Assembly: GCA_046497075.1 (NCBI GenBank) | Contig: JAWOGF010000038.1 | Coordinates: 1,306-65,305 of the forward strand | Source of the DNA: Candidatus Saliniplasma sp. | Lineage (GTDB): Archaea > Thermoplasmatota > Thermoplasmata > Halarchaeoplasmatales > Halarchaeoplasmataceae | Reading direction: 5' to 3' | Length of the DNA stretch: 64,000 nucleotides | Shown here: one piece after another, positions 41,010-57,421 of the stretch | Layout: the number at the start of each line of letters is the position of its first letter | Numbering within the stretch: position 1 is the first letter of the stretch | Translations under genes and position numbers: made by a program | Notes under the pieces: model-generated | Databases searched by the model: none | What the model was told of the DNA's origin: nothing | The model's input: the letters and a program-made list of their open reading frames with translations, nothing else

Positions 41010-42560
41010 ATGATGTTTGTAAAAATTAAAAACATTCTAGCAATTACCATGGTGATACTACTAGTTTCGAGTGTTCTGATCGTCAGTCTTGCCTCTTCAA
41101 CGAGTACCGAATCAGACCTAGAAGTTCAAAACGTTGACCCGGCCCGTAGACGTGTAGATTTCGGTACGTTCGAATACGGTGAGGATGAACTCGGTTTATA
41201 TATATCGATGGTTAAAGACAAGACACCGACATGGACATTCTATGGTGATGGTGAACTCTTAGAAAAGATCGAAACGGGTTATGTGGATTTTGACTGGAGC
41301 GACTATGGAGATTTCGATAAAAGAGAGTTCGTGGTGGAGATAGAAGAATACTCAGATGTTACAAAAATAGATTGGTCTTATAAAAGCCTAGTTGGGGATA
41401 TCCCCTCTGAACTGGGAAAACTCTCGAATCTAGAACGATTGTATCTTAGAGCTAATGATTTAGATGGAGGGATACCGTCAGAATTAGGTGATCTTAATAA
41501 CCTGGAATATCTAGACTTACGAGAAAACCAGTTGTCTGGAGAGATACCACCGGAGCTAGGGAGACTCTCGAACATAGAACGGTTTTATCTAACTGACAAC
41601 GGGCTATCTGGAGAGATACCACCAGAACTGGGAGATCTTTCGAACGTTAGAAGTTTCTATCTAGATTCCAACAGATTGGAGGGGAAGATACCGCCGGAAC
41701 TGGGAGATCTTTCGAATATTGAATACTTAGATCTGCGCTTTAATGAACTGTCAGGGAAGATACCACCAGAACTAGGACGGCTTTCAGACCTCCAATGGTT
41801 TAAATTATGCTCTAACCATCTCGTTGATGAGATACCACCAGAACTCGTTGGGCTCTCCAGCCTCGAATGGTTCCGTCTGAGTGATAACGAAATTTCTGGA
41901 GATATACCTAATTGGCTGGGAGAACTCTCAAAGCTTGAATGGATAGATTTGAACGGCAATGAGCTGTCGGGTGAGATCCCACATGAAATAGGTGACCTCG
42001 ATAAGCTTAAAAAGTTAGATCTAGGTTCCAACAGATTGTCTGGAGAGATACCGCCGGAACTGGGGGGCCTCTCAGATCTTAAATTGTTAAACCTAAATTC
42101 GAACGAGTTATCGGGAGAGATCCCTTCTGAACTGTCTAGTCTTACTGATCTAGAAAGGGTAGAACTGCAGGACAATAAATTTAATCATTACGGAATCGAC
42201 GCTTTTTCAACTCAACCGAACCTCGGTGATTATAAAGATGTTTTTGATGTTTTAAACATCTCAGAAAATGATCTATCATCCGAAGATATTGACAATATTT
42301 TATCCGATCTAGTCGAAAGTTTAAAACTAGAGGATAAAATTGAGGCTGAAGTATATCTAACCGGAAACTCTGTTCCTTCTTCCGATGGTATGGAAAATAA
42401 GCAGATCCTTGAAGAGGAAGGTTGGAACGTTGAGGTAGATGAAGAAGAAAAAGATGAGGTAGATGAAAAGGATGGTATACCAGGATTTACCCTACCTATC
42501 TTCCTAATCGTAGCAATCATCGTGACGGCAGTCCACCAAAAGAAGAGGGATAGACAATAG
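41010..42560 (+). CDS. Secreted leucine-rich-repeat protein (about 13 plant-type 24-aa LRRs) with a PGF-CTERM sorting tail
   Basis: LSGEIPPELGxLSNLExLxL repeats (72-bp DNA periodicity across 41400..42180); C-terminal PGFTLPIFLIVAIIVTAVHQKKRDRQ. Confidence 0.8.
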   Translation: MMFVKIKNILAITMVILLVSSVLIVSLASSTSTESDLEVQNVDPARRRVDFGTFEYGEDELGLYISMVKDKTPTWTFYGDGELLEKIETGYVDFDWSDYGDFDKREFVVEIEEYSDVTKIDWSYKSLVGDIPSELGKLSNLERLYLRANDLDGGIPSELGDLNNLEYLDLRENQLSGEIPPELGRLSNIERFYLTDNGLSGEIPPELGDLSNVRSFYLDSNRLEGKIPPELGDLSNIEYLDLRFNELSGKIPPELGRLSDLQWFKLCSNHLVDEIPPELVGLSSLEWFRLSDNEISGDIPNWLGELSKLEWIDLNGNELSGEIPHEIGDLDKLKKLDLGSNRLSGEIPPELGGLSDLKLLNLNSNELSGEIPSELSSLTDLERVELQDNKFNHYGIDAFSTQPNLGDYKDVFDVLNISENDLSSEDIDNILSDLVESLKLEDKIEAEVYLTGNSVPSSDGMENKQILEEEGWNVEVDEEEKDEVDEKDGIPGFTLPIFLIVAIIVTAVHQKKRDRQ

Positions 42561-42715
42561 TAAGGCTTTCTAGGATGGCTGCCGGCTCATAACCCCTCAT
42601 ACCGATATGTAATGATATGGTCCGTTATTTGATGGTTGATCCTATTTATACTCCCCGTTTTTTTCAATGGCAACTGGAAATATTTAAAAAGGGTTGTGGT
42701 ATTACATAAGGCTGT

Positions 42716-43498
42716 ATGAAGGCCAAAGGAAGTGGAGTGCATATAGTTACTGGTGGTTTTGAGTACGACAGGATCCTTAAACCGATGTTGAACAGATATC
42801 CCGTCGATAGATTGGTTTTACTGAGGTCAAAATCTTCACCCTACAGGGATTCTAAAGACTTAGCTAAACAATTCATCGAAAAACTACAGGAGAACCCTAT
42901 CGATATCAATATCCATCGTGTGAATATATACGATTTCGACGATGTGTATTCTAAAGTTTTGAAGATCTTGAAAAACCAATCACATCACAATAAAAAGATA
43001 TACATGAACATCTCGTCCGCACCCAAACTCACTCTGGTAGCCATGATGAGTGCCGCCTTCATGATGAAAAACGAGGCTGATATAGAGATATTTTACGTAT
43101 CCCCTGATGATTACCTAATCCCCAAGATCATCGATAGGCTGGCGGATGTCGAAAATAATGTAGAAGAGTTGAGGGAACTCAGGGAACAATTTTTAGAGAA
43201 TGGGACAGCTATGGGTTTGAAAAATTACGAAGAAATCCCCATCTTCCCGGTAAAGAATATTACCGACAGGGATCGATACATACTCGAAGTGTTGAAATCC
43301 AGTGACGGGGTAGACTCGATAAAGGAACTGGTTCTTAAGGTCAATAGATCAAGAAAAAAGCGTATCGAAAGGTCCAGCGTACAGTACAGGTTAGAAAAAT
43401 TGAAAGAGAACGGCCTGGTTTATACTGAAAGGCATAACAAGAAACTCAGGATATCCTTGACGAGGGTTGGGGATATCTACCTGAAAGGTGATGAGTAG
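42716..43498 (+). CDS. DUF6293/HFX_2341-like putative transcriptional regulator (N-terminal alpha/beta domain plus a C-terminal winged helix)
   Basis: VHIVTGGFEYDRIL...DRLVLL...NISSAPK pattern; C-terminal SSVQYRLEKLKENGLVYTER wHTH. Confidence 0.45.
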   Translation: MKAKGSGVHIVTGGFEYDRILKPMLNRYPVDRLVLLRSKSSPYRDSKDLAKQFIEKLQENPIDINIHRVNIYDFDDVYSKVLKILKNQSHHNKKIYMNISSAPKLTLVAMMSAAFMMKNEADIEIFYVSPDDYLIPKIIDRLADVENNVEELRELREQFLENGTAMGLKNYEEIPIFPVKNITDRDRYILEVLKSSDGVDSIKELVLKVNRSRKKRIERSSVQYRLEKLKENGLVYTERHNKKLRISLTRVGDIYLKGDE

Positions 43499-43624: not shown

Positions 43625-44572
43625 CTAATCCTCATCGAATTTGCCGAGGATCATATAAATTTTGGCAGTTATCAGTGTTACGGATATAGTCAGAGCAAAA
43701 AGTATCAGAGTCCATCTTAGGTCTTCCATCATAGTGTAGTCTATGAGCATGATCAGTCCCAGTATAAGCATTATTGAGCCTCCGACTAGTTTTATGATCC
43801 GTCCTTCCTTTTTACCAAAATCGAATCTCTTCATCTGCAGAGCAGCACTGAAGTATATGATCATCTCTATGGAAAGATATATGAGAATATATAATATCAA
43901 AAAAGCTATGTACACCGGAGTTTCAAGTGCTCTCTCCGCCACGATCTGAGACCATATAACTGGAAATCCCGCTGTACAAGGAAGTTCGACCAGTGCTATT
44001 CCTGCAGCCATAGCGGTAGTTGCTACTATCAGAGTTAAAGAATCCTCCTTTTTCATCAATCCTCGTACTTTCTTGTATATCCCAGGTTTGTATCTGTCGG
44101 GTATAGTGAACGATATACCTTTCTTGAACCAGAAGAAATCTTTGATACTCACGGAAGCAAAAATTATCGCTATAACAGCAACTATCATCCTTATCCAAAA
44201 GAGGTGAGCAATAAAATGAAATATAGTGAGGGCACCGGCGATAAAGAGTCCGTAAACTAAGGCTGTAACTATCAAAAAAGTAAGACCTACCATGATGACA
44301 TCCTTTTTTCCAGAGTATAGTACTATCCCAAGTAGGAAAGACAGGACCCAGATAGAACAAGGGTTGAGCCCATCTACAAAGGCTATAAGGACTGTTAAGA
44401 CTACCAGCGGATAGGCATCACCTCTTACTTCGCCGACTATAGGTAGATCATAAGTATCGTTCGGTTCGGATCCTGTAGACCCTTCGACTAATGATATCCC
44501 GGATAGTAGGATCACCGCGATAAGAAGTGCTATCAAGATCGTTTTCCTTTTTATTTGAATTTTTTTTATCAT
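43625..44572 (-). CDS. CcdA/DsbD-like thiol-disulfide transporter membrane protein
   Basis: DGLNPCS in TM1 and LPCTAGFP in a later TM helix; ~8 TM segments. Confidence 0.45.
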   Translation of the reverse strand: MIKKIQIKRKTILIALLIAVILLSGISLVEGSTGSEPNDTYDLPIVGEVRGDAYPLVVLTVLIAFVDGLNPCSIWVLSFLLGIVLYSGKKDVIMVGLTFLIVTALVYGLFIAGALTIFHFIAHLFWIRMIVAVIAIIFASVSIKDFFWFKKGISFTIPDRYKPGIYKKVRGLMKKEDSLTLIVATTAMAAGIALVELPCTAGFPVIWSQIVAERALETPVYIAFLILYILIYLSIEMIIYFSAALQMKRFDFGKKEGRIIKLVGGSIMLILGLIMLIDYTMMEDLRWTLILFALTISVTLITAKIYMILGKFDED

Positions 44573-44617
44573 GATTAATCGTTTTAAATCGAACTTGCAT
44601 ATTTAGCCCATTCAAAT

Positions 44618-45100
44618 TTAATTGTTTGACAGCTTTTCTCCCGGGCTAGAGCATTGATCAGATTCCATACAACTTTCGATAGCATCTTCCATTTCCTGCC
44701 TATACCCTTCGTCAAAACTTACCCAGTACTCATCACCGATGAAAGTAGTTGGAACACTGGCTATGGGCACATCGTAGATTTCGACCAGTTTTTGAAACAC
44801 CTTTCTGTCTTCGGTATTGCCATAGATATCAAACTTCTTCACTTCGATATCGTCATCTTCTTCCAATTCATCAATATATTGCCGTTGTTTCTCACAGATC
44901 GGGCAATCCTCGTCCCAAAACCAATATACCGTCACTTTATCTGGATCGTCTTCTATACCTGTTCCAATATCTTCATCATCCTCGGGTACACTAGACTGCA
45001 GGGTATAGATAACAGATCCGATGATAACGATCACGATTCCCAGTGCTAGGACATTTTTGATGATCTTTTTATCCATTATACTTGATTCACTTTTCTTCAT
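44618..45100 (-). CDS. Membrane-anchored thioredoxin-fold protein (CPIC active site)
   Basis: N-terminal TM anchor; WFWDEDCPICEKQ CxxC motif; acidic extracytoplasmic domain. Confidence 0.6.
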   Translation of the reverse strand: MKKSESSIMDKKIIKNVLALGIVIVIIGSVIYTLQSSVPEDDEDIGTGIEDDPDKVTVYWFWDEDCPICEKQRQYIDELEEDDDIEVKKFDIYGNTEDRKVFQKLVEIYDVPIASVPTTFIGDEYWVSFDEGYRQEMEDAIESCMESDQCSSPGEKLSNN

Positions 45101-47576
45101 CTACAGACTTCTCTCCCCTCTTAGTTTTCATCCAAGTTACAATCATGATCACGGTTAAGATAATGGCTATCAGTATCACAAACGTCGTTATATTGTTTTG
45201 CGTAGGTGAATCTTCGTCAGCGTCGGTCGCTTCGGTCAGGGGATAATCGTCTACAAACCCTTCTCCTCTATATGGGGTGACCCAGATATCTCCATCAGCG
45301 ACTTTTCCAGCATCCGGATATTCCTTATCGTAATCGGACCAGTAATTACCCCCGATGGGGTAACCATTATCCCATTGGTTATCGCCGTGATCTCTAGCCT
45401 GAACTAGATTTTTTATAAAGTTATTATGGTAAATAGTGTTGTCATTACTTCGAAGATCTAGTGATATACCTGGATTATTGTTGTAAAGGGTATTATTATT
45501 GATGAGATTTGATCGAGATGATCGGAGAGATATCCCCGCGTTGATATTAGAATTGGCTGTATTCTTTCCTAGGGCATTATTTTTGGAACTTGAAAGATGT
45601 ATTCCATGTTCTCCGTTCCTAGATGCAGTATTTTCCTTAATTATATTGTTATCTGAGTTTTTGAGTGAGATACCGCACCAATCGTTCCCTGAGACGTTGT
45701 TAGATGTTATGGTGTTTTTCGACGAAAAGCCGAGTTGTACACCGACCGATCCTTGACTAAGGTCTTGATCTTTTACTTTTATATTCTCACACCCGACCAA
45801 GATTATCTGACCCGCATCTGATGGAACACTTTGATTATGATTATCCGTCCAATAGTAGACCGGCCTGCCGTTAACTGTATTGGTTGTACTTATCGAATGT
45901 GAATCCCAGTACTCTAACAGGTCGCCCCAGATAATGATCCCGTTTTCGGTCATCTCATTTTCTTCTAAAGAGTGTTCTTTGGAGTCTGAAAATATTACCC
46001 CGCCCCAGTCGTTGTTAGATAGTGAGTTTTTTTCGACCGCATTTCCAGTTGAGTTGGAGAATGAGACCCCGTAGCCGAAGTTGTTTGTTATGGAGTTTTC
46101 TGCAAGATGATTTTTATTTGACTTTGAAAGATGTATCCCGTGGTACTCATTCTCCGTGATGATGTTATTTGAGACGGTGTTTTCATTTGACCCTTTAACG
46201 TGGATACCGTCTTCTAGGTTTTGTGAGACGGTGTTATCAATTACTGAGTTTTGGTTTGAGGACTCTAGTCGGATCCCATGACGGCTGTTCGAGTTGATAT
46301 CATTATCTAAGATATCGTTGTTTTGGGAATTGTATAGATAGATACCGTAAAGGCCGTTTGTTAATTCATTCCTTTCGATATCGTTGTTGGATGAAAACCC
46401 CATTAGGATCCCTGCAGAGCTACTACTGACTTCGAGATCTTCGACGACCATGTCTTTACAGTCGGCCAATATCACTTGTCCGGCATCAGATGGGACCGTA
46501 CCTCCTCTTTCGCTGTGGTAATAGTAAATGGGTTTTCCCTCAACAGAGTTATCCGTAGAGATCGTGTGGGTGTCCCAATGAGCTAATTTTTCACCTGTTA
46601 TGAACACTCCATTCCCTTCAAAGATATTATCTTCGATCAGCTGATTTTTAGAGTCTGATATGTAAACGCCATATTCATTATGTAAGAGTTCGTTGCTTGT
46701 AACATTATTTTCTTCTATCGAGCCCGCAAAACTGATACCATAATCGTTTTTTTCTGCAGTATTTTCTTCAACCAAATTAGAGTTCGATTCATAAAGCTGT
46801 ATACCTACAGTGTTGTTAAACCCGGTATTATATTTGATGATATTATCATAAGAATTTATTAGGCTTATACCGAAATCGTTTTTCTCTGCATAGTTATCAA
46901 CAACGTTGTTATCGCTACTGGAATCGTAAAGGTAGATGCCCCGGTAATTGTCCAAAAGTTGATTTTCTTCGATGTCGTTGTTGAAGGAGTTTTCGATACG
47001 GATCGAGTAGACACTGTTGTTCTGTAAGATATTGTTGGAAATCTCGGTGTTCTTCGAGTCTTTGAGCCAGATCCCCTTTTTTTCATGACGTTCCAGTATA
47101 TTATCAGTAATCATTCCATTCTCGACGTTGTTCAGGTATAGACCGGTGTTTGAAAAGTATGGCTTTTCCATTCCTGACGCGTTATATATATAACAATCTC
47201 TTACGACAAAGTGGTCTGACACATTGCCTATGTATATGCCATAGCCGTATCCCCCTGCATCTATATCATATCCTTCGATCATCCAGGGGTCGTCAATATA
47301 TCCACTCCCTGCCCAATCCTGTTCTACAAAATCCTGGTCGTTATCTATCCGTATAGGCCCATGTTCGATGTAATCATCAGATGTAAGTTGTTCTACATGG
47401 GTAGAAAGATGAACTTTTTCTTCGACCCCGTCATCATGATCGATAGCCATACCCGAAATAAGTAAGATAAGACATACGGTAGCCCATACTATTATCTTAT
47501 TTTTAATCTTCACCATATATTGCACACCATACCCCGATAAAAAATTTCGGTATATATAGTTTATGTATCTATACAA
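45087..47576 (-). CDS. Large secreted right-handed parallel beta-helix repeat protein (NosD/CASH-like; two repeat blocks) with a C-terminal TM anchor
   Basis: Signal peptide; more than 25 iterations of NNxIxxNxxxGIxLxxSxxN 22-aa units; C-terminal TFVILIAIILTVIMIVTW anchor. Confidence 0.8.
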   Translation of the reverse strand: MYRYINYIYRNFLSGYGVQYMVKIKNKIIVWATVCLILLISGMAIDHDDGVEEKVHLSTHVEQLTSDDYIEHGPIRIDNDQDFVEQDWAGSGYIDDPWMIEGYDIDAGGYGYGIYIGNVSDHFVVRDCYIYNASGMEKPYFSNTGLYLNNVENGMITDNILERHEKKGIWLKDSKNTEISNNILQNNSVYSIRIENSFNNDIEENQLLDNYRGIYLYDSSSDNNVVDNYAEKNDFGISLINSYDNIIKYNTGFNNTVGIQLYESNSNLVEENTAEKNDYGISFAGSIEENNVTSNELLHNEYGVYISDSKNQLIEDNIFEGNGVFITGEKLAHWDTHTISTDNSVEGKPIYYYHSERGGTVPSDAGQVILADCKDMVVEDLEVSSSSAGILMGFSSNNDIERNELTNGLYGIYLYNSQNNDILDNDINSNSRHGIRLESSNQNSVIDNTVSQNLEDGIHVKGSNENTVSNNIITENEYHGIHLSKSNKNHLAENSITNNFGYGVSFSNSTGNAVEKNSLSNNDWGGVIFSDSKEHSLEENEMTENGIIIWGDLLEYWDSHSISTTNTVNGRPVYYWTDNHNQSVPSDAGQIILVGCENIKVKDQDLSQGSVGVQLGFSSKNTITSNNVSGNDWCGISLKNSDNNIIKENTASRNGEHGIHLSSSKNNALGKNTANSNINAGISLRSSRSNLINNNTLYNNNPGISLDLRSNDNTIYHNNFIKNLVQARDHGDNQWDNGYPIGGNYWSDYDKEYPDAGKVADGDIWVTPYRGEGFVDDYPLTEATDADEDSPTQNNITTFVILIAIILTVIMIVTWMKTKRGEKSVDEEK

Positions 47577-47680
47577 CCATATATATTTAAAGAAAAGACT
47601 CTAGACACCTAAGAAATCCTAAGAAATTTTTCTAGAAAAATATATATACTATCCTTAATTTACACCGCTCGGGATTGAAC

Positions 47681-48166
47681 ATGGAAAAAGGGACAATAAA
47701 GGTGACAACCTGCATAGTGATTTCCTTGATCATGATAGCTGGATTTTCTATCATGTTTGAAAGCACTGCAGAGGGTCCGGAAGGATATGAGGCTGAAGGA
47801 GAGGACGACATCTACACTACATTCGTCGAGAAAGATGCTGTAGAGGAGGAAGAGCCCACTTCGTACAACCTTACGGAAGGAGAGTTAGAAGAGATCGAGG
47901 AACTGATGGTAGAAGCATTGGGATTAGAAGACGGTCCGAAGCTCGAGTCGGAGATCGACCTCATGGAATGGTTCGCCGAGATGGACGAGGATGACTGGAG
48001 CGATCTGACCGAGTACACGAGCGAGACAGATGATGACACGGGATGCGGATCAGCTGGGTACGATGGCAGAGACGGACCGAGAGAGCGAGGGGAAGAAGAG
48101 CTGATGAGTCCCCCGCCGATGCAACCCAACGGCGGCGGTACATACGAGCCTGGCACCACACTCTGA
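47681..48166 (+). CDS. Membrane-anchored hyper-acidic protein ending in the EELMSPPPMQPNGGG leader-like motif (founder gene of the Cys-rich-peptide cassette)
   Basis: ATG at 47681 (the track's 47675 is a TTG). One N-terminal TM helix, then a domain that is more than 35% Asp/Glu. The C-terminus carries repeat copy R1 and stops 8 codons later. Confidence 0.55.
   Translation: MEKGTIKVTTCIVISLIMIAGFSIMFESTAEGPEGYEAEGEDDIYTTFVEKDAVEEEEPTSYNLTEGELEEIEELMVEALGLEDGPKLESEIDLMEWFAEMDEDDWSDLTEYTSETDDDTGCGSAGYDGRDGPRERGEEELMSPPPMQPNGGGTYEPGTTL
48095..48139. repeat. Repeat R1 (~45 bp) encoding EELMSPPPMQPNGGG
   Basis: gaagagctgatgagtcccccgccgatgcaacccaacggcggcggt. Near-identical copies occur at 48214..48252 and 48909..48957. 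Confidence 0.85.
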
Positions 48167-48211
48167 TGCCTGGCTGCGTAATACTCGTCAAGTTCTGCAG
48201 AAGATGTCTCA

Positions 48212-48586
48212 ATGGTGAGTTCGCCGCCGATGCAACCCAACGGCGGCGGTGGCTGGAGTGACACTTGTCCATACGGAGTATATTTAACTTACGATGAATG
48301 TTTACAAAATAATGGATGGGATGAGGAATATTGTTCTTGTGTCTGTGATTACAGCGGCAGTTGTGGCGGCCTATGTGAATTAACTGATGAATATTGGGAT
48401 TGTGTAGATGAACAAACAAGCCATCCTGTTTATTATGCGAGTATAATTATAGGTTGTGGAGTTGGTTGTATAGTGACAGATCCTGGATGGCCGTTATGTG
48501 TTAAAGGATGCATAATAGGTGCTTCTGTTGCACCGGTAGCCGTGTACACAGGCTGTTTATTTGTTGAAGGTGCTTATGAATGTTAA
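48212..48586 (+). CDS. Cysteine-rich peptide A precursor. It has an MVSSPPMQPNGGGG leader-like N-terminus and a 110-aa core with 17 Cys and a hydrophobic Gly/Cys-rich C-terminal half.
   Basis: Carries repeat R2 at its 5' end. The core begins WSDTCPYG...DEC, paralogous to peptide B. It is in the same frame as the upstream gene, separated from it by two in-frame stops. Confidence 0.55.
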   Translation: MVSSPPMQPNGGGGWSDTCPYGVYLTYDECLQNNGWDEEYCSCVCDYSGSCGGLCELTDEYWDCVDEQTSHPVYYASIIIGCGVGCIVTDPGWPLCVKGCIIGASVAPVAVYTGCLFVEGAYEC

Positions 48587-48792
48587 AACTTGAACGACAT
48601 ATACAAAAACTAATAGTGTCTTTTATAATATCCATACACCATATTAGCTTGTATATTCTAGTTAGAATTGATGTATTATCTATGCCTAGAAACTGGAGAT
48701 ATACCTTTCTACCTTTATATGTTGGTTTTACTGTAATCGCCATTATTACGTTCTATCAGGGAATCTCAGGATTCAATCAAAAAGACATATAA
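48580..48792 (+). CDS. 2-TM microprotein (70 aa), putative cognate immunity/partner protein of peptide A
   Basis: Its ATG overlaps the peptide A stop (gaATGTTAAaa), indicating translational coupling. It has two hydrophobic helices. Confidence 0.5.
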   Translation: MLKLERHIQKLIVSFIISIHHISLYILVRIDVLSMPRNWRYTFLPLYVGFTVIAIITFYQGISGFNQKDI

Positions 48793-48818
48793 TGATCGGA
48801 TAACGAGGTGAGAACGAA

Positions 48819-49166
48819 GTGTCCAGTGTATTTAGTATGAGCAGATACACATACGTGCAGAAAACTCCGACGGATGACAAATGCATGCAAGATGAGTTAG
48901 ATGAGATCGAAGAGCTGATGAGTTCGCCACCGATGCAACCCAACGGCGGCGGTGGTGGTAGTGTAGGCGACACTTGCCCTGATGAATGGAGTTACGATAG
49001 CTGGGATGAGTGTAGGTGGTACCATGATGTTGATACATGTGCAGACCTTTGTTTTGGTGAGTATGAAGAAGCTGGTATGAGTTGTGAGGCCAAAGTAGGC
49101 CTTCTTTGTGCAGATGTACGTATGCGCAAAACGAAGTATGTGGATAATATAGGATGTGTGGTGTGA
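48819..49166 (+). CDS. Cysteine-rich peptide B precursor (GTG start). It has a 47-aa acidic leader ending DELDEIEELMSSPPMQPNGGGGG and a 68-aa core with 9 Cys.
   Basis: GAGGTGA RBS 7 nt upstream. Carries repeat R3. The core SVGDTCPDEWSYDSWDECRWYHDVDTC aligns with peptide A (DTCP...DEC...C). Confidence 0.55.
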   Translation: MSSVFSMSRYTYVQKTPTDDKCMQDELDEIEELMSSPPMQPNGGGGGSVGDTCPDEWSYDSWDECRWYHDVDTCADLCFGEYEEAGMSCEAKVGLLCADVRMRKTKYVDNIGCVV

Positions 49167-49167
49167 T

Positions 49168-49362
49168 ATGAAGATATCAAAAAGAACAAAGTTTCTTGCG
49201 ATATTTATATTTGGTTGGAATATAGGTATTTTTATTGCCTCATCGATATCCCACCGAGATTTACATTTTCCACTATCAATGATGATTGGTGGAACCATTG
49301 GCGCTGTGATAATGTATATATTAGGTGTAGATAAAATGATAAAAAAACATAAAAATGATTGA
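49168..49362 (+). CDS. 2-TM microprotein (64 aa), putative immunity/partner protein of peptide B
   Basis: Its ATG lies 1 nt after the peptide B TGA. Basic N-terminus plus two TM helices (FLAIFIFGWNIGIFIASSI, LSMMIGGTIGAVIMYILGV). Confidence 0.5.
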   Translation: MKISKRTKFLAIFIFGWNIGIFIASSISHRDLHFPLSMMIGGTIGAVIMYILGVDKMIKKHKND

Positions 49363-49399: not shown

Positions 49400-49960
49400 A
49401 AATGAAGCATCTGATAGAAAGTGAAGTCGTTAATACCGTGCAGAACGAATATGATGATGAGAACATGCTGTAAGGTCTGATGATAAAACTTACAGCTACG
49501 ACAAAATAAGAAGAACATGCTCACCGATCATCCTATAAGCATCGAAGTGAACGGTACAAAATATTAGTACTTATACAATTGCCAAGGCAGCGTTACTGAA
49601 CTGATCAACTCAGATGAAGAAGTAGTCAATCAATACAGATACACCCCATTCGGCAGTCCCAGATTGAAAGTAGAAAGCGTGTACAACCCATATCAGTACA
49701 CCGGAAGAAGATTGGACGAGGAATCCTGTCAGTACTACCACCGAGCTAGGATGTACTCGCCTACGGAGAACGAGTTCATCAGCAGCGATTTTTCGGGATT
49801 CTTATGGACTCCCAGTAGATCCCATGGGATTAGAAGAGGGACCGAACATGTACACTTACGCAGGGAACGATCTGGCGAATCACAGGGATCCAAGCGGGTG
49901 TATGTATGTTTCCTTGAACTTGAGCTGTTCTGTCAAATCTCCGATATCACTAAATTCTTG
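49400..49960 (+). pseudogene. Decayed RHS/YD-repeat C-terminal core fragment (frameshifted, multiple stops)
   Basis: Frame 1 gives NPYQYTGRRLDEESCQYYHRARMYSPTENEFISSD (compare YRYTGRxxDxETGLYYYRARYYDPxxGRFISxD). After a frameshift it continues SYGLPVDPMGLEEGPNMYTYAGNDLANHRDPSG, the DPxGL...NxYxYxxNxPxxxxDPxG Rhs core end. Upstream are YD-like remnants (VVNTVQNEYDDENML) interrupted by stops. There is no N-terminal Rhs body. Confidence 0.55.
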
Positions 49961-50014: not shown

Positions 50015-50734
50015 ATGGAGGTGAGCATGTCTGAAACAGACGTATCACCATCTTTGATGATATTGGAAGTGATCGGCGTTACCATCATGGCCTTGCTCCT
50101 ATCTTTGGCGATGGGTGTCGTTTTTATCGTGTCATTGGTTGTGTTGGGATATGGAGTCGATTCAACTTTCGCACTCGGCGGCGCTACAGTTTTTGGTCAA
50201 GTGGGATTCCTGATAGTAGCATATATCTACATACGTCGTCGGAAAGTGACTGTCCCATTTGAGGCACCATCTCGATCAGATCTGTTTCACATCGGAGGAG
50301 GGATAGTTATCGCGCTGGCTACTGCAATTGGATTTTCCCAGTTGCTGTTATACTTCGATCTTATGCCGGAATCCGTTCTCGAAGAGATCGCTGAGACCAG
50401 TCCGATATTTTTGATAGTTCTAGCGATACTGTCTGTAGTACTAATTGCCCCGGCTGAGGAGCTTTTATTCAGAGGGGCCATCCAAGGCAAACTCCGTGAA
50501 CATTTTACTCCAATCCCTGCGATCACAACTGCAAGCCTTTTATTTGGTTCCCTCCATTTTCTCAACTACGGTGGAGATATCCTTCCAATAATACTGTCGA
50601 CATTACTTATCGTCGTCATCGGTGGGATAATGGGTTGGTTGTATGAACGTACGAACAACATCGTGGTTCCGATCCTGGTTCACGGGATATACAATTTCGT
50701 ATTACTGGTGCCCAACTATTTTGAGATGGTATAG
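50015..50734 (+). CDS. CPBP-family intramembrane metalloprotease (CAAX protease / Abi self-immunity family)
   Basis: EELLFRG, FGSLHF and HGIYN motifs in the correct order; 6-7 TM helices. Confidence 0.8.
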   Translation: MEVSMSETDVSPSLMILEVIGVTIMALLLSLAMGVVFIVSLVVLGYGVDSTFALGGATVFGQVGFLIVAYIYIRRRKVTVPFEAPSRSDLFHIGGGIVIALATAIGFSQLLLYFDLMPESVLEEIAETSPIFLIVLAILSVVLIAPAEELLFRGAIQGKLREHFTPIPAITTASLLFGSLHFLNYGGDILPIILSTLLIVVIGGIMGWLYERTNNIVVPILVHGIYNFVLLVPNYFEMV

Positions 50735-50834: not shown

Positions 50835-52310
50835 ATGGATGGAAAAACCCTTGCAGATTTTGCTGTAGAGTATGGTCAATCTTTAGAGGCTGATTATGTA
50901 GAAGCTAGGTTCGTAACCTCCATGAACGAGAACTATTTTGCTAGGAATGGTAAGTTTTTAAGTATTCAGGAAAAACCCATCAGAGGGTTAGGTATAAGGG
51001 TTCTTGTGGACGGATGTGTCGGTTTCGGATCTGTGGATGTTTTGACCAAAGATGAGGTCAAAGATAGGATCGAATCGATCTCTAAGATGGCAGGACTTAG
51101 TAAAAGAGAAATACCTATCGAATTTTCAAAAGAGAAAACAGTTCAAGACAATTGGATCGCCCCGGTTGAAGTTCCTTTCGAGGATATATCTAGGGAAGAG
51201 AAACAAGATTATGTAAAACGTTTAGATAAAAGGGTCAAAGAAGCAGGTTCTAAAAAATTTTCGTTCAGGAACAGGATAAAGAACAGGATATTCTTCCTCC
51301 ACACAAACTCCATGGATAAGTACATAGTCAACTCGGAGGGTTCTAAAATAAAATCCGACGAATCGTTCATATCACTATTTACTATACTTAACGCGAAGGT
51401 CAAAGATTCTAGTGAGCAGAGGATGTTAGGTTTAGGTGGAAGTGCGGGATGGGAATGGCTCAAAGAGGAAAACGTGCATGACTTAGTAGGCAGGGAAAGT
51501 GAAAAACTTGTCAAAACCGTAGAAAATGCCCAGAATATCCCTTTCAACGAAGATATTGACGTGGTAGTGGGACCCGAAGTCTCCGGGATAATGGCACATG
51601 AGAATGTAGGACATCCCAGTGAGGGCGATAGGATAATCGGTCGAGAAGAGGCACAGGCGGGAGGATCATTTTACGATGAATTTTTTGGTATCGATAACAA
51701 AGATCCAGTAGATCTAAACCAGTCTGAGATCAAATTGGGAAGCGAAGATGTGTCAGTCATAGACGATCCTACTATCGATCAAAGTCCGGGTTTCTATATC
51801 TACGACGACGAATGCGTCGAAGCCCGAAGTAGATACCTGATCAAGAACGGGCGGTTGAACGAACTCCTTCTTAACCGTGAGTTCGCTTCTAGATTCGGTA
51901 CCCGTTCCAACGGTGCTGCTCGTTCCTCCTCATATAGTAGAGAACCCATTCCAAGGATGTCGAACACTTTCTTTGAACCCGGAGACCACACTAAAGAAGA
52001 GCTAGTAGAAGATATCGAAAAGGGTCTGCTTATCGAGAGTTTCACCGAGTGGAACATAGATGATAGACGGTACCACAGTAAATACGTAGGATTGGAAGCA
52101 TATCTAATACGGAACGGAGAGGTCACTGACCAGATGGTCAAGCGCCCCGCACTAGAACTTACAACTCCAGCACTCCTAAAAAGCATAGAGGGTGTTTCAA
52201 AAGACTACGAATCCAGGATGAACTTCTGCGGTAAGAGCGATCCCATGCAGCCGGTGAGCGTTTCCACTGGGGGACCTTATCTGAGGATCAGAAACGTGAG
52301 GGTGGGGTGA
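50835..52310 (+). CDS. tldD: TldD-family metalloprotease (peptidase U62)
   Basis: HENVGHPSEGD (HExxxH...E) zinc site; ~490 aa. Confidence 0.8.
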   Translation: MDGKTLADFAVEYGQSLEADYVEARFVTSMNENYFARNGKFLSIQEKPIRGLGIRVLVDGCVGFGSVDVLTKDEVKDRIESISKMAGLSKREIPIEFSKEKTVQDNWIAPVEVPFEDISREEKQDYVKRLDKRVKEAGSKKFSFRNRIKNRIFFLHTNSMDKYIVNSEGSKIKSDESFISLFTILNAKVKDSSEQRMLGLGGSAGWEWLKEENVHDLVGRESEKLVKTVENAQNIPFNEDIDVVVGPEVSGIMAHENVGHPSEGDRIIGREEAQAGGSFYDEFFGIDNKDPVDLNQSEIKLGSEDVSVIDDPTIDQSPGFYIYDDECVEARSRYLIKNGRLNELLLNREFASRFGTRSNGAARSSSYSREPIPRMSNTFFEPGDHTKEELVEDIEKGLLIESFTEWNIDDRRYHSKYVGLEAYLIRNGEVTDQMVKRPALELTTPALLKSIEGVSKDYESRMNFCGKSDPMQPVSVSTGGPYLRIRNVRVG

Positions 52311-53770
52311 TAGTTATGGTAGGAGAAATTTTTGATGAGGAATTGTTGCAGGTCGGAGTTGAAACCGCTTTGAAGGCGGGAGCCGATGAAGCCATAGTTA
52401 AACTGGTAGATCAGAAAAAACATCAGATCAGATTTTCAAATTCTTCTATCGATGTGAATAAAGAATGGAGCAGTTACTACATAGATGTATTATTCACTAA
52501 AAAACCACGCCTTTCTCTAACGGGAAAGATCAACACACTCACAATCCAGGACCCGGATCCAGAGAAAATAAGAAAGAACGTTCCAAAACACGTCAGTCTT
52601 CTGGATCATTTACCGAAGAACAAGCTATACTGGGGTATGGACGATCGATCTTATAGCTCTTATCGTTCTTTGAATATATATGATGATAGGGTAGAGGGTT
52701 TTCATGAAAAAGGGCCAGATCTAGTAAGGAAGACTATCGATTCAGCTCTACAGAGTGGAGCTGACGGTGTTTCAGGTGTACTGCACTCAGCAGCTACCAA
52801 GACCGGTGTTCTAACCAGTTATGGGAACGGAGGAACGTACAGGTCTTCTTTTTGTCGAGGAACTGTCAGGGCATTTCATCGAGAGGGCGGTAGTGGACAA
52901 GGTTTGATAGTAGCTAGAGATCTTTCTGGCATAGATGAAAGGTTTCGAAAAGGTGGTGGGAAAGCAGGGAGATTGGCCAAGAAGAGTGCAGGGGCTGAAG
53001 AGGGAAAACCTGGGACTTATGATGTGATAATGGCTCCGACCGTAGGTGCTAATATCTTTGGTAATCTTCTCAATGGGACCAATCCTATAATGATGATAGC
53101 CGGTATGAGCCCTCTTAAAGGTAAGATGAACGACAAGATCGGCCCTGAAAATTTGACTGTTATCGAAGACCCCATTTTAGATGAAGGACTGAACAGCAGA
53201 CCATTCGACGATGAGGGCACTCCTTCAGAAAAAACTGAACTCATCAGAGATGGAGAACTCACCGGATTGATCCATAACACTTCTACAGCTAAATTATGGA
53301 AGTTTATAAGTATGCTAAAACTCAGATTCTGGAGAAGGCCAAAGACTACATCGAACTCAAGCTTAACACAACTTGGGATGACCGGTACAGAAGAGGATCC
53401 TAGAACACTTATGCCGACTCCTTCAAACTATCGATTCACCCCTGGATCATACAGCTTGGATGAACTCATCTCGACCTCTTCCAGACCGACGATTTTACTT
53501 ACGTCCAACTGGTATACCAGGTTCACCAATATGAGCGAGGGAGAGTTCTCTACTGTTCCTAGAGACGCTGTATTTTTAGTTCAAAATGGAGAGATAAAGA
53601 AACCGATAAGGAATCTTCGGTTGAAAGGCAACCTTTTAGAGATGTTAAAAAATATAGAGGGGATAGGGAAGGGATCGAAGCAGATCCGATGGTGGGAAGT
53701 CAACACACCCACTTTCATCCCACATATCAAGATAAAGCACTGTAAGTTCACCAAGGCTAAAGCAAGATAG
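52307..53770 (+). CDS. pmbA: PmbA/TldE-family protein (TldD partner)
   Basis: U62-family fold without HExxxH; 4-bp overlap with tldD. Confidence 0.75.
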   Translation: MIVMVGEIFDEELLQVGVETALKAGADEAIVKLVDQKKHQIRFSNSSIDVNKEWSSYYIDVLFTKKPRLSLTGKINTLTIQDPDPEKIRKNVPKHVSLLDHLPKNKLYWGMDDRSYSSYRSLNIYDDRVEGFHEKGPDLVRKTIDSALQSGADGVSGVLHSAATKTGVLTSYGNGGTYRSSFCRGTVRAFHREGGSGQGLIVARDLSGIDERFRKGGGKAGRLAKKSAGAEEGKPGTYDVIMAPTVGANIFGNLLNGTNPIMMIAGMSPLKGKMNDKIGPENLTVIEDPILDEGLNSRPFDDEGTPSEKTELIRDGELTGLIHNTSTAKLWKFISMLKLRFWRRPKTTSNSSLTQLGMTGTEEDPRTLMPTPSNYRFTPGSYSLDELISTSSRPTILLTSNWYTRFTNMSEGEFSTVPRDAVFLVQNGEIKKPIRNLRLKGNLLEMLKNIEGIGKGSKQIRWWEVNTPTFIPHIKIKHCKFTKAKAR

Positions 53771-53805: not shown

Positions 53806-56754
53806 TCAATCGAATCTCAACGCTTCCGCCGGTGAGACCTTACTAGCCTTATGGGCACTCGGTATAGCGGTTAGCAGCATAGCGACATATGCTATCACAC
53901 CTATCGTCAAGATCGAAATCCACGGTATGGAGAATTCCCAGCCCATAGGTTTGAACCCGTCGTACCACAGCAGCCATCCGATAGCTATACCCAAGCTAGA
54001 ACCCAACACTATACCAACAATAGTTATGAAAGAGTTCTCTATCAAGAAGGCGTACCTGATCATCTTCCTTTTGAACCCGATAGCTCTCATCATACCGATC
54101 TCCAACCGCCGTTCGTGTACCGCCCTTAAACTAATAATACCCAAACCAGCGATCCCAACAACTAGACCTAGCCCCATATAACCTGAAAACAGGTCGAAGA
54201 ACATGTAGGTAGCACTCATAGCATCTCTGATGATCGTTTCGATGACTACGGTCCTGAACCCGTACTGGATGAACTCTCTGTTAAGATCACGGCCAAGCTC
54301 ATCGGCATCTACGTTCTCTTCAACGCTGAAGAAAAATAGAGAGTTAGAAGTGATATTGAATTCATTTCTTACAGTTCCTTTGGACATGAAATACCCGCTG
54401 ATCGCATTTTGGTCCATGAAGCCAACGACTTTTTTTTCACGTACTTCATCTTCATGGTCGATGAACTTAACAGTCGATCCCAACTCGATAGTCTCGCCTC
54501 CCGGCGGTCCGTATTGATCAGAGGGGGCGTTTGTTATGACCAGCGAGGAATTCGACAAAACAGCATCCCATACTTCATCGTTGGACTCATATTCATCGAG
54601 ATAGTCAGAGAACCCAAATGTATTATTGCCAACGAAATTATCATCTATACCTATAGCGGATTTCCTACCTATCTCACCATCATTATCTCTCATACGTATA
54701 TTACCGCGGTAAGCCGAGTCGATATGGTTAAAATCCTCAATATCTAAGTTTTCATTGTTAATTATCTCGCTGTGCATGTCATCGATATATTTATCCTGAC
54801 CTGTCATACCCATGATCTCATACCCGCCGGATTCTTCTTCGATCATCCTATCTATGTTAGTATCGAAGATACCGACGATCATCCCCATGACTGTTATTGC
54901 GAAGATGATCAGAGCGAAGATGAAGATAGTCATACCGGTTCTGAACTTCTCTTTTAATGGGTGGGAAATGGCTGATAGAACTACCGCTTTGAAGCCAGTA
55001 TCCGACCTGCACAACCTTTCCATCCCACCTGTTAATAGATGACCGTTCAGCATTACTATGAGTACTCCTGCGGTTACCATGAATAGACCAGAAAGTATGA
55101 ACATCTCTAATCCAGAGGTGTATCCCTCGAAGAATTCTAATGTGTCCAGTGGAACGAGCCACCAGACCAGCAAGAACACCCCTACACCAGTATAAGCGGC
55201 TCTATCTCCCACCCATCTTCTAGCGACCGTTCCGATACCGATTATTATGAGAGAAATGCCAGTTACGGGTAACCAAAACTGATCCACACCTGTTCCCATT
55301 ATCGTTAAAAGAACTCCAAGGATCAACCCCGCGATGGCCATGTAAAAGACCTTTTTGTTTTTCTTAGATACGGGTGGTTCAGGTATATCTCTGATAGCTC
55401 TAACGATATTCAATTTAGATATCCGGGTAACTGAAAAGAATATCGTGCCCATTGTCAACAAAAATCCGGCAGCGAAGGCCAATATCATGCTTTCTGGGGT
55501 GAAAGTAAAATATCCAAGGAGCGATACATCCCCGCCGAATGTAGCGAATATATCTTCGAGTAAGAAGAATATAACATAAGTTAAACCAGCACCGACAAAA
55601 ACACCTACGAAGGAGGCCGCACCAGCATATATCATACCTTCGTAAGAGAATACCCTACGAAGGTGTCCTCTTTTCATACCTATCGCCCTGCTCATACCCA
55701 TCTCGGATTTCCTCTCCTCCCCCAGCATAACGAATATGTTAACCGCTAAGATGATACCGGCGATTATAGAGAAGGTACCAAAAATTAAGAAAATATCAGT
55801 GAACTGCGATATGTTATCTTTAAAATCCTGCAGTACCTGGTTCTTGTTCCCTTTAGCCTCTAATACGTTATACTCGGGATCTTCCTGCAGAAGATTCTCG
55901 ATATCCTCAAATATCTGATCGCTGTATTCAATACCGCTTTCTACACCACCTATAGAAGTGACTCTGATGTAGTTTACTTGATTTGGAAGGCTGAAGGCCG
56001 TTTGAGCATCAGATAAAGACATGATGATCTTATTGCTTCCACGGAAAGCCGCTCTTCCCTCGTTATCGATCACCTCTTTTACTGTATAGGTCATATCGTT
56101 TACTCCATTACCCCCCTCCTCCTGAGATTCTACTGTAAACAATAGTAACTCATCACCTTTCTCAGCCTCTAATTCTTCTGCTAATCGTGTATCTATAAAT
56201 ATCTCTTTTTCTCCAAGCTCAGGTTCGAAACTCTCACCATCTTTGTAAAAACGTCCAAAAGCCTCACCGTCATCAAGATCCATCCCGATAACACGGGTAC
56301 TCGGTTGAGACAGTCTTGCATCTGGATTTAATACCGGTAGAGAGCCGTGAACTTCACCACTCACTTCATCTACATTATCGATATCAGATATATCTGAACT
56401 GAGATTTTTATAAGTGCTGTGCTGTATAGGAACATAATTTCCCTCTACTGTTGTATTGTATACGGTTACGTCCGTCTGCTGCCACTCGCTGTAGATCTCA
56501 TCCTCAACCATATTGTCCATGGTATCTCCGACACCGAAAGAAGATGAAATGATAGCAGTGGCAATCATCAATCCTAAAATCACTATGACTGTATTGGTCT
56601 TCCTGCGGAATATGTTCCTACATCCGATCCTAAATAGAATTTTATGTCTATAAGCATCGAAAAGGACTATACCAACAACTACTGCGATGATACCCAGTAG
56701 AAGGACGATCATGCCTTCACCCCTCCTTAATCTGGTCCCGCTGGACAACTCCAC
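53806..56754 (-). CDS. ABC transporter permease with two FtsX-like modules (MacB/FtsX family, 982 aa, large extracytoplasmic domains)
   Basis: Two repeats of a TM-large loop-3TM architecture; located downstream of a MacB/LolD-type ATPase with a 38-bp overlap. Confidence 0.8.
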   Translation of the reverse strand: MELSSGTRLRRGEGMIVLLLGIIAVVVGIVLFDAYRHKILFRIGCRNIFRRKTNTVIVILGLMIATAIISSSFGVGDTMDNMVEDEIYSEWQQTDVTVYNTTVEGNYVPIQHSTYKNLSSDISDIDNVDEVSGEVHGSLPVLNPDARLSQPSTRVIGMDLDDGEAFGRFYKDGESFEPELGEKEIFIDTRLAEELEAEKGDELLLFTVESQEEGGNGVNDMTYTVKEVIDNEGRAAFRGSNKIIMSLSDAQTAFSLPNQVNYIRVTSIGGVESGIEYSDQIFEDIENLLQEDPEYNVLEAKGNKNQVLQDFKDNISQFTDIFLIFGTFSIIAGIILAVNIFVMLGEERKSEMGMSRAIGMKRGHLRRVFSYEGMIYAGAASFVGVFVGAGLTYVIFFLLEDIFATFGGDVSLLGYFTFTPESMILAFAAGFLLTMGTIFFSVTRISKLNIVRAIRDIPEPPVSKKNKKVFYMAIAGLILGVLLTIMGTGVDQFWLPVTGISLIIIGIGTVARRWVGDRAAYTGVGVFLLVWWLVPLDTLEFFEGYTSGLEMFILSGLFMVTAGVLIVMLNGHLLTGGMERLCRSDTGFKAVVLSAISHPLKEKFRTGMTIFIFALIIFAITVMGMIVGIFDTNIDRMIEEESGGYEIMGMTGQDKYIDDMHSEIINNENLDIEDFNHIDSAYRGNIRMRDNDGEIGRKSAIGIDDNFVGNNTFGFSDYLDEYESNDEVWDAVLSNSSLVITNAPSDQYGPPGGETIELGSTVKFIDHEDEVREKKVVGFMDQNAISGYFMSKGTVRNEFNITSNSLFFFSVEENVDADELGRDLNREFIQYGFRTVVIETIIRDAMSATYMFFDLFSGYMGLGLVVGIAGLGIISLRAVHERRLEIGMMRAIGFKRKMIRYAFLIENSFITIVGIVLGSSLGIAIGWLLWYDGFKPMGWEFSIPWISILTIGVIAYVAMLLTAIPSAHKASKVSPAEALRFD

Positions 56755-57421
56755 TTTCCATGTGAAGTACCCTTTCTGCCCTATCAGCTACTCTGTTCTC
56801 ATGGGTCACTAGGACCATAGTATGTCCGTTTTTATCGTTCAAGTCGCAGAGTATGTCCATGATCTTATCCGAAGTTTCAGTGTCGAGGTCACCGGTGGGT
56901 TCATCGGCCCAGATCATATCAGGCTCGTTGACTATGGCTCTAGCGATGGTTACACGCTGTCTTTCCCCTCCTGATAATGCTGAAGGTCTGTGAGTATATC
57001 TATGCCCTAAACCCACCATATCCAGGGCTTTTTCCGCTTTTTCTCTAGCACCTTTTGATTTTCCCGCTAGAAGTAAAGGCAGCTCGACATTTTCCACAGC
57101 TGAAAGTACTGGTAATAAATTATAGAATTGGAAGACAAAGCCCATGTTCATAGCCCTCATCTCGGTCTTTTCATTATCAGATAGTGAACTGAGATCCTTT
57201 CCTTTCAACCATACTTTGCCTTTGGATATATCATCAAGACCGGATAAGCAGTTCAACAATGTAGTCTTCCCACATCCAGAAGGCCCCATAATAGCGACCA
57301 TCTCACCTTTTTTGATAGAAAGGTCGACACCACGTAAAGCGTGGACCTTCACTTTTCCTTCATAGAACTTGTGTAATTTCTTTGATCTTATCATTCCGGT
57401 CTTCATAGTCTCCGCTTCCAT
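56717..57421 (-). CDS. ABC transporter ATP-binding protein (MacB/LolD-type)
   Basis: GPSGCGKTT, LSGGERQRVTIARA, IWADEPTGDLD. Confidence 0.9.
   Translation of the reverse strand: MEAETMKTGMIRSKKLHKFYEGKVKVHALRGVDLSIKKGEMVAIMGPSGCGKTTLLNCLSGLDDISKGKVWLKGKDLSSLSDNEKTEMRAMNMGFVFQFYNLLPVLSAVENVELPLLLAGKSKGAREKAEKALDMVGLGHRYTHRPSALSGGERQRVTIARAIVNEPDMIWADEPTGDLDTETSDKIMDILCDLNDKNGHTMVLVTHENRVADRAERVLHMESGVVQRDQIKEG

Follow-up and report, generated by a model that had tools for sequence, protein, structure and literature searches.

A partly decayed array of probable polymorphic-toxin cassettes in Candidatus Saliniplasma

Five plus-strand open reading frames (ORFs) within 47675-49362 of a 64-kb stretch of Candidatus Saliniplasma DNA (contig JAWOGF010000038.1; the whole stretch is called the window here) were analysed together with their relatives in protein, genome and metagenome collections. 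The region is probably a partly decayed array of polymorphic-toxin (archaeocin) cassettes: an acidic carrier gene (gene 1) is followed by two genes for cysteine-rich peptides (peptides A and B), each with a microprotein gene behind it that encodes two predicted transmembrane (TM) segments (microproteins 1 and 2). The gene 1 protein is 100% identical to NCBI R6W73_03990 from a metagenome-assembled genome (MAG) of Candidatus Saliniplasma (Thermoplasmata, Halarchaeoplasmatales). None of the five window ORFs was matched by a Pfam or NCBIfam model.

The mobile unit would consist of a flexible P-x-x-(N/D)-G-G-G-G linker, a helical hairpin of about 40 residues with four cysteines (4-Cys hairpin), an acidic linker and a hypervariable tail. 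The tail is made up of two or three helices that are hydrophobic and rich in Gly, Ala and Cys, and it presumably acts as the toxin that attacks membranes; one tail type is halocin C8-like. Each cargo would travel with its own downstream membrane-protein gene, presumably for immunity, and a single cargo pool would be mounted on two carriers, either the C-terminal ends of RHS proteins or a small protein with a signal/anchor and a long acidic pro-region, from which it would be exported and may be released by proteolysis. The conserved junction would be a sequence of about 48 nt encoding ELMSPPMQPNGGGG, at which homologous recombination swaps cargo between carriers and leaves downstream orphans with only a carrier stub. 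Such orphans would accumulate downstream, and immunity genes would outlive their toxins.

The junction sequence was found in three consecutive genes. A 48-nt unit, whose three copies (Table 1) were 75-100% identical in a repeat search, encodes (E)ELMS(S/P)PPMQPNGGG(G) in gene 1, peptide A and peptide B alike, and it reads EELMSPPPMQPNGGG at the C-terminus of gene 1, MVSSPPMQPNGGGG at the start of peptide A and EELMSSPPMQPNGGGGG at residues 31-47 of peptide B. Its 24-nt core, CCGATGCAACCCAACGGCGGCGGT, occurs exactly three times in the 64 kb and was matched in 0 of 100 dinucleotide-preserving shuffles (0 expected). A common motif carried by a DNA repeat had already been proposed for these genes in a first-pass annotation made by a model from the sequence alone, and this was confirmed. 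Homology of gene 1 DNA to all other family leaders ended at 48139/48140 (blastn), and homology of peptide A began at 48212. Recombination between copies 1 and 2 of the repeat would be an in-frame deletion of 111 nt that mounts peptide A on gene 1.

Gene 1 has a hydrophobic signal/anchor segment at residues 6-32, as judged from hydropathy, and a strongly charged acidic region (net -39), and it ends 8 codons past the motif (TYEPGTTL and stop). It was aligned at 45% identity (E=6e-31) with residues 1-146 of the 291-residue protein P0020, which continues from there into a Cys-rich cargo. The order signal/anchor, acidic region, motif and cargo is found in two full-length carriers, P0019 (271 residues) and P0020, and the N-terminal hydrophobic signal/anchor segment was found by hydropathy in gene 1, P0019 and P0020. 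On this alignment, gene 1 is a signal-bearing carrier that was cut off just after the junction. At the DNA level, 26 of 32 nt were identical between 47909-47940 in the acidic leader (VEALGLEDGPK) and 49815-49846 in the RHS remnant of the window (VDPMGLEEGPN), which is above all 500 codon shuffles (maximum 24). The similarity between the acidic leader and the RHS core end was not significant at the protein level. The match may be a trace of an origin of the carrier from an RHS fragment and is given here as a lead, not as a claim. Antisense ORFs of 150-152 residues lie opposite the acidic leader (47812-48419 on the minus strand in the window, with equivalents at related loci). They turn up at each locus, as the GA-rich strand that codes for the acidic protein is free of antisense stops, and they are almost certainly not genes.

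The ORF of peptide A (124 codons) is fully intact. Its product has a Gly-run linker, then a 4-Cys helical hairpin and an acidic linker, and ends in a helical tail that is hydrophobic and rich in Cys and Gly. The peptide has 14 Cys in total; the 17 Cys first counted in it and the 9 in the core of peptide B were corrected to 14 and 7. It lies in the frame of gene 1 behind stops at 48164 and 48179, as the first-pass annotation had noted. The whole cargo is 39% identical to that of P0032 (E=4e-23), where it stands behind an RHS-associated core, and peptide A is 43% identical to P0013. In a sister MAG, GCA_046483025.1, whose contig carries R6V04_04060 to 04075, an identical peptide A cargo is preceded by a different leader of 46 residues (P0037), which is direct evidence that close strains exchange what lies upstream of the junction; measured against this copy, peptide A of the present genome is a cargo that has lost its own leader. 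The structure predicted by AlphaFold2 (AF2) was all-helical, with a predicted local distance difference test (pLDDT) score of 62.5.

Together with microprotein 1, peptide A is likely to form an intact orphan toxin/immunity pair. Microprotein 1 fills the slot that is held by a TM-protein gene in every other cassette, and it is, by position and topology only, a candidate immunity protein for peptide A. It had no detectable similarity to the product of the 59-codon gene that follows the peptide A-like toxin in locus L006. The NCBI locus tags run from 03995 to 04000 with none between at microprotein 1, and its ORF was absent from a collection of 15 billion proteins.

Peptide B starts at a GTG, and a Shine-Dalgarno (SD)-like sequence (GAGGTGA, 48805-48811) is located 7 nt ahead of it, within a boundary region that is conserved in seven non-redundant loci (L002, L003, L008, L011, L013, L015 and L016). 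In a DNA alignment with its intact ortholog (L004:41-517), peptide B was found to have suffered a frameshifting deletion of 106 nt. This took most of the halocin-like tail and left about 10 residues of the domain, and the ORF now stops 1 nt before the next ATG. Residues 102-158 of the intact ortholog (L004:41-514; identical in L014) matched NF040679 with E=6e-13, and the same protein matched halocin_C8_dom (TIGR04449) with 25 bits at a cut-off of 24. The truncated, frameshifted protein is identical in a second MAG (P0001/P0036). Peptide B, with 7 Cys in its core and one more in the leader, is on this alignment a decayed halocin C8-like toxin gene and not a mature core of 68 residues. The likeness to halocin C8 had been suggested for peptide A, which matched nothing; it holds for peptide B in the form of its intact ortholog.

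In L004 and L014, the intact toxin gene is followed directly by a gene whose product is 94% identical to microprotein 2, and the sister MAG has an identical copy of the microprotein (P0038). Microprotein 2 is a candidate immunity protein for the halocin C8-like toxin, apparently kept although the toxin is dead. Two hydrophobic segments were found in each microprotein, as described before, but the 1-nt spacing that had suggested coupling is a by-product of the frameshifting deletion, the gap being 1 nt in the window and 20 nt in the intact ortholog. Peptides A and B have no N-terminal hydrophobic segment (hydropathy) and no twin-arginine motif (by eye), in agreement with the earlier statement that neither carries a Sec or Tat signal.

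Among 1.84 billion representative proteins, a search with a profile of the family gave only 31 matches at E<=1e-3, and word-indexed protein searches gave 4 and 11 relatives, all of 233 residues or fewer. When 185,579 species genomes were scanned, the family was found in one MAG, and a metagenome scan gave 11 loci, all from soda-lake sediments. The family is thus real but extremely narrow in distribution, and all traced members come from soda-lake samples. Homologs embedded in a large surface protein, for which a check had been proposed, were not among the matches, all of which had 334 residues or fewer.

In an alignment of 20 members, four nearly invariant Cys (DTCP...(D)EC...C...C) and an invariant N-G-G were seen, followed by sequence without conservation; the DTCP...DEC...C scaffold of the first-pass annotation is therefore real. 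The N-terminal part is a mosaic in which at least four types of start are shuffled against the cargos. One of these types has the signal/anchor and long acidic region, and a conserved acidic stretch reads DWSDLxEYTSETDDDxGCGSAGYDGxDGPRERGEEELMSPPxxPNGGGG. The 4-Cys segment of about 40 residues is followed by an acidic linker and a hydrophobic Gly/Ala/Cys-rich tail of 50-70 residues, which could not be aligned between types; about 20 distinct tails were found behind near-identical leader and junction sequences. In the AF2 models (pLDDT 64 and 62.5), the N-terminal part was disordered, and a short hairpin of helices led consistently into two or three long ones. Pfam searches with the 20 members gave only noise, the family profile found nothing among PDB sequences, and a tblastn search of plasmids with the halocin-like tail and peptide A gave no match.

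The P-x-x-(N/D)-G-G-G-G stretch, the 4-Cys domain and a tail also follow directly after RHS core ends (P0028, P0030, P0032-P0035 and L001:3698-4036). RHS-fused members have the order ...DPSG, 8-15 residues, P-x-x-(N/D)-G-G-G-G, 4-Cys segment and tail. The Rhs_assc_core model TIGR03696 scored 69-88 bits in P0028, P0032, P0033 and P0035; P0034 (31.3 bits) and P0030 (17.4 bits) were under the cut-off of 32.5 and were recognized by the ...DPSG core-end motif. By eye and unaligned, P0033 and P0008 look alike in their cargo, and P0028 and P0004 have near-identical tails. The RHS-end orphan at L001:3698-4036 carries PPNLVNGGGG and a cargo; in L016, counterparts of this cargo and of the 317-residue product of the gene downstream, each 79% identical, stand behind an acidic leader. 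Since the Gly-run stretch follows RHS core ends, it is either part of the cargo module or itself the recombination junction, and the motif is probably not the end of a leader. The bacteriocin/immunity layout that had been proposed for the region was therefore retained as regards cassettes of the toxin/immunity type and dropped as regards a leader ending in Gly-Gly.

At every related locus the toxin genes each precede a different membrane-protein gene (59-317 residues), and the loci are tandem arrays of cassettes with a toxin and a TM-protein gene, orphan TM genes and RHS remnants; arrays of orphan cassettes were found in L003, L004, L005, L008 and L011. In an all-against-all comparison, nine pairs of loci had tails at least 79% identical, and in every one of them the downstream regions matched as well, at 79-100% identity; three of the nine are the same stretch sampled twice (100% identical tails), and 346 of the 356 pairs with dissimilar tails had no downstream match. 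The co-variation holds with unrelated leaders (L004:1586 and L005:2930) and between RHS and acidic leaders. A conserved N-terminal part before variable Cys-rich cargo, which had been predicted for related genomes, was thus found with about 20 tails, each co-varying with a downstream membrane-protein gene, and the downstream gene is presumed from this pattern to encode the cognate immunity protein. Ten immunity candidates from related loci gave no Pfam match at the gathering threshold, except for one marginal match to a TPR family. One recurring type of candidate, of about 311-317 residues, carries a zinc-ribbon-like CxxC...CxxC at its N-terminus, with many TM segments behind it (L005:656-1591, L011:2108-3043, L001:4131-5084 and L016:423-1373); in L011 it is an orphan with no adjacent toxin.

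The array is closed by a remnant of an RHS core. TIGR03696 matched 49400-49960 with 34 bits, and the frame is broken at least three times when the sequence is read in three frames; upstream repeats and a toxin tip are missing. The remnant ends in ...RDPSG and a stub of 21 residues. Its sequence is almost identical to that of the RHS portion of P0032, the protein whose cargo resembles peptide A, and it also matches RHS-end orphans in L001. By this match and its broken frame it is a fragment of an RHS pseudogene.

Table 1. Features of the cassette array; positions are those of the 64-kb window.
Feature	Position	Strand	Remarks
Gene 1, acidic carrier	47675/47681..48166	+	163 residues; likely start is the ATG at 47681
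Junction repeat, copy 1	48102..48149	+	Encodes LMSPPPMQPNGGG
71-nt spacer with both in-frame stops	48141..48211	+	Unique; no match at other family loci (blastn against 20 related loci)
Junction repeat, copy 2	48213..48260	+	
Peptide A	48212..48586	+	Predicted intact orphan toxin module, without leader or obvious ribosome-binding site
Microprotein 1	48580..48792	+	70 residues; two predicted TM segments; ATG overlaps peptide A stop; candidate immunity protein
Conserved 5' untranslated cassette boundary	48787..48818	+	82-89% identical at related loci
Peptide B	48819..49166	+	GTG start; short acidic leader, junction motif, 4-Cys hairpin; tail deleted
Junction repeat, copy 3	48916..48963	+	
106-nt deletion junction in peptide B	49112..49113	+	From alignment with intact ortholog
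Microprotein 2	49168..49362	+	64 residues; two TM segments; candidate immunity protein for halocin C8-like toxin
RHS core C-terminal pseudogene	49400..49960	+	Reads ...YRYTPFGSPRLKVESVYNPYQYTGRRLDEE..YYHRARMYSP.. / ..DPMGLEEGPNMYTYAGNDLANHRDPSG

Directly downstream of the array, a CPBP/Rce1-like intramembrane protease (50015-50734, plus strand) and then a pair of TldD/PmbA metallopeptidases (50835-53770, plus strand) are encoded. The CPBP family is often tied to bacteriocin immunity. On the upstream side and divergent from the array lies the gene for a NosD/parallel beta-helix repeat protein of 829 residues with an N-terminal signal and a C-terminal TM anchor (45087-47576, minus strand). Genes at 43625-45100 (minus strand) encode a membrane-anchored thioredoxin/glutaredoxin-like protein (CPIC) and, adjoining it, a multi-TM protein of 315 residues (LNPC, ELPCTAG; no family match); these two may form an extracytoplasmic thiol-disulfide pair, 2.5 kb from the Cys-rich peptide genes. 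Further upstream (41010-43498, plus strand) are genes for a leucine-rich-repeat protein of 516 residues and a Csa3/HFX_2341-like Rossmann-domain protein. The CPBP protease, the TldD/PmbA pair and the thioredoxin-like gene were considered as parts of the system and rejected, as they have no conserved association with the family at related loci; the position of the protease and the metallopeptidase pair may be coincidental.

Several observations weigh against an array of polymorphic-toxin cassettes. Only one of the about 20 tail types matches a known toxin domain, and the tail of peptide A had no match in Pfam, NCBIfam or PDB, the halocin C8 models included. Confidence of the AF2 models was modest (pLDDT 62-64), and a Foldseek search of PDB with the P0008 model gave only non-significant helical hairpins (E>6). 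A full-length RHS protein with this cargo was not seen, the RHS-fused matches all being fragments of 334 residues or fewer. Microprotein 1 has no detectable homolog and is unannotated in the NCBI record. Most members, including peptide B and the sister-MAG copy of peptide A, have their own start codon and an SD-like site but no signal peptide; such members would either be silent or cytoplasmic orphans, or another export route exists. Finally, the source data are MAGs and short metagenome contigs, in which assembly across repeats could affect the structure of an array. An assembly chimera at the repeat was rejected as unlikely, since two copies of the motif flank a unique spacer of 71 nt and a second MAG has the truncated peptide B too.

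If no toxin were made here and selection merely kept orphan immunity genes against the toxins of neighbours, the region would be a dead relic or immunity island, an alternative that we regard as somewhat unlikely. It would account for the truncation of gene 1, the frameshift in peptide B, the RHS pseudogene and the lack of a leader, signal and obvious ribosome-binding site in peptide A, and for the perfect conservation of microprotein 2 between two MAGs despite the dead toxin; runs of TM genes without toxins are also found at related loci. On the other hand, the ORF of peptide A is intact and its cargo is identical to the leader-bearing copy of the sister MAG, and one recombination event between copies of the repeat would be enough to regain a complete secreted precursor. 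A relic of this kind is also compatible with a partly decayed cassette array and not truly exclusive of it.

The peptides could also be free-standing bacteriocin precursors with an acidic leader that a dedicated exporter/protease cuts at the Gly run, comparable to double-glycine leaders (class II, NHLP, Nif11), with the microprotein as immunity protein. In many members, a separate start codon, a conserved 5' untranslated region and an SD-like site are found together with an acidic helical leader (ELDEIEELM...) and the invariant N-G-G-G; several paralogous precursors per genome have common leaders and different cores; and halocin C8 itself is freed by proteolysis from a larger precursor (Strock & Warnecke 2026). 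We nevertheless consider this explanation improbable, because the Gly run and the PP..N stretch also occur after RHS core ends that have no such leader, and neither the window nor any related locus has a C39-peptidase ABC transporter or a tailoring enzyme or other enzyme for ribosomally synthesized and post-translationally modified peptides (RiPPs). ABC exporters are encoded only at 10051-13643, 35 kb off, and have no peptidase domain, a MacB/FtsX-type system (53806-57421) lacks C39, and no NHLP or Nif11 leader model was matched. Full-length members carry a signal/anchor, so that a picture of leaderless export is not needed. Very improbable, in our estimate, is a role outside conflict, in which the proteins would form a lineage-specific family anchored in the membrane by their tails; the acidic region would lie in the cytoplasm, the 4-Cys domain would bind Zn, a TM hairpin would form the C-terminus, and the TM neighbours would be functional partners. 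Signal peptides are indeed missing in most members, the four conserved Cys (C-x(11-12)-C...C-x3-C) could bind metal, and the tails resemble TM hairpins, the top non-significant Foldseek matches being c subunits of ATP synthase. But the same module is fused to RHS core ends and in one case matches the halocin C8 domain, its tails are hypervariable and contain many extra Cys within the hydrophobic sequence, the downstream genes co-vary with it, orphans and pseudogenes occur, and the full-length forms bear a signal.

The comparison with orphan modules of polymorphic toxin loci, already drawn in the first-pass annotation, proved to be the right frame. Rhs/CdiA polymorphic toxin loci reportedly contain orphan cassettes of a toxic C-terminal region (CT) and its immunity gene (Zhang, Aravind et al. 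2012; Koskiniemi et al. 2014), and polymorphic toxins are said to have been surveyed across archaea. The present family has four of the features by which polymorphic toxins are recognized, namely variable tails on a conserved carrier, a co-varying downstream gene, cargo on two carriers and orphan arrays. As in Rhs/CdiA systems, a conserved carrier ends in a hypervariable C-terminal part, the presumed toxin, with its co-varying candidate immunity gene immediately downstream, tandem orphan cassettes keep a carrier stub as a recombination handle, and toxins are pseudogenized with their immunity genes retained; some cargo copies of the family even have an RHS core end as their carrier, and the window contains an RHS remnant. 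Unlike in those systems, the carrier in the window is not an RHS protein and is small (271-291 residues at full length); it combines a signal/anchor with an acidic pro-region and belongs to no Pfam or NCBIfam family. The junction reads ELMSPP-x-x-PNGGGG instead of DPxGL or VENN, and all cargos of the family have a 4-Cys helical hairpin between junction and toxin. As polymorphic toxins with orphan cassettes are well established, the result is incremental and not surprising.

With halocin C8 (ProC8 of Natrinema; TIGR04449/NF040679) the family shares a small, hydrophobic, Cys-rich C-terminal peptide on a larger precursor, and a passage in Strock & Warnecke (2026), citing Makarova 2019, describes halocin C8 domains fused to RHS repeats in Nitrolancea. 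In the window, however, this domain is deleted from peptide B and peptide A does not match it; immunity presumably resides in a separate two-TM protein of 64 residues, whereas in Natrinema it is the N-terminal domain of the precursor itself; and the host belongs to Thermoplasmatota, not to Halobacteria. The HalI-type immunity domain PF22862 was not matched in a Pfam search of 20 members, and no member sequence has a twin-arginine N-terminus. Double-glycine class II and Nif11/NHLP-leader peptides (prochlorosins) are likewise encoded by many paralogs per genome, with a common N-terminal part ending in a Gly run and variable Cys-rich cores, but the N-terminal parts of the present family have 35-130 residues and are mosaic, and its Gly run also follows RHS cores. 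By these sequence features, the system of the window is a member neither of the ProC8 family nor of a double-glycine or RiPP leader family. In the literature searched, nothing was found on this family or on toxins of Saliniplasma. Four components match no family model and appear to be undescribed: the carrier, the junction motif, the 4-Cys domain and the small two-TM protein that accompanies a halocin C8-like peptide.

The weapons that archaea use against other microbes are poorly known, and none was found described for halophilic Thermoplasmatota in the literature searched. The present locus and about 30 relatives define a compact carrier, a junction motif and a 4-Cys pre-toxin domain without a match in Pfam, NCBIfam or PDB, and the same toxin/immunity modules are predicted to move between RHS proteins and a small secreted carrier. 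A halocin C8-like peptide is tied to a separate membrane protein of 64 residues, which is likely to be its antidote. A further-reaching proposal, which we put forward tentatively and consider unlikely, is that of a self-contained archaeocin system, in which a small carrier equipped with a signal and an acidic pro-region would have taken over toxin tips that usually sit on RHS proteins, and these tips would be freed near the Gly run as disulfide-rich, membrane-active peptides; the 4-Cys hairpin would then be a new pre-toxin or targeting domain, and the two-TM proteins a new class of immunity proteins against halocin C8-like peptides. If true, this would document an evolutionary route between contact-dependent RHS toxins and diffusible archaeocins of the halocin type, and it would be the first conflict system for Halarchaeoplasmatales. 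The locus offers a set of very small putative toxin-antidote pairs, and it is a concrete example of a possible interconversion between diffusible archaeocins and RHS toxin tips.

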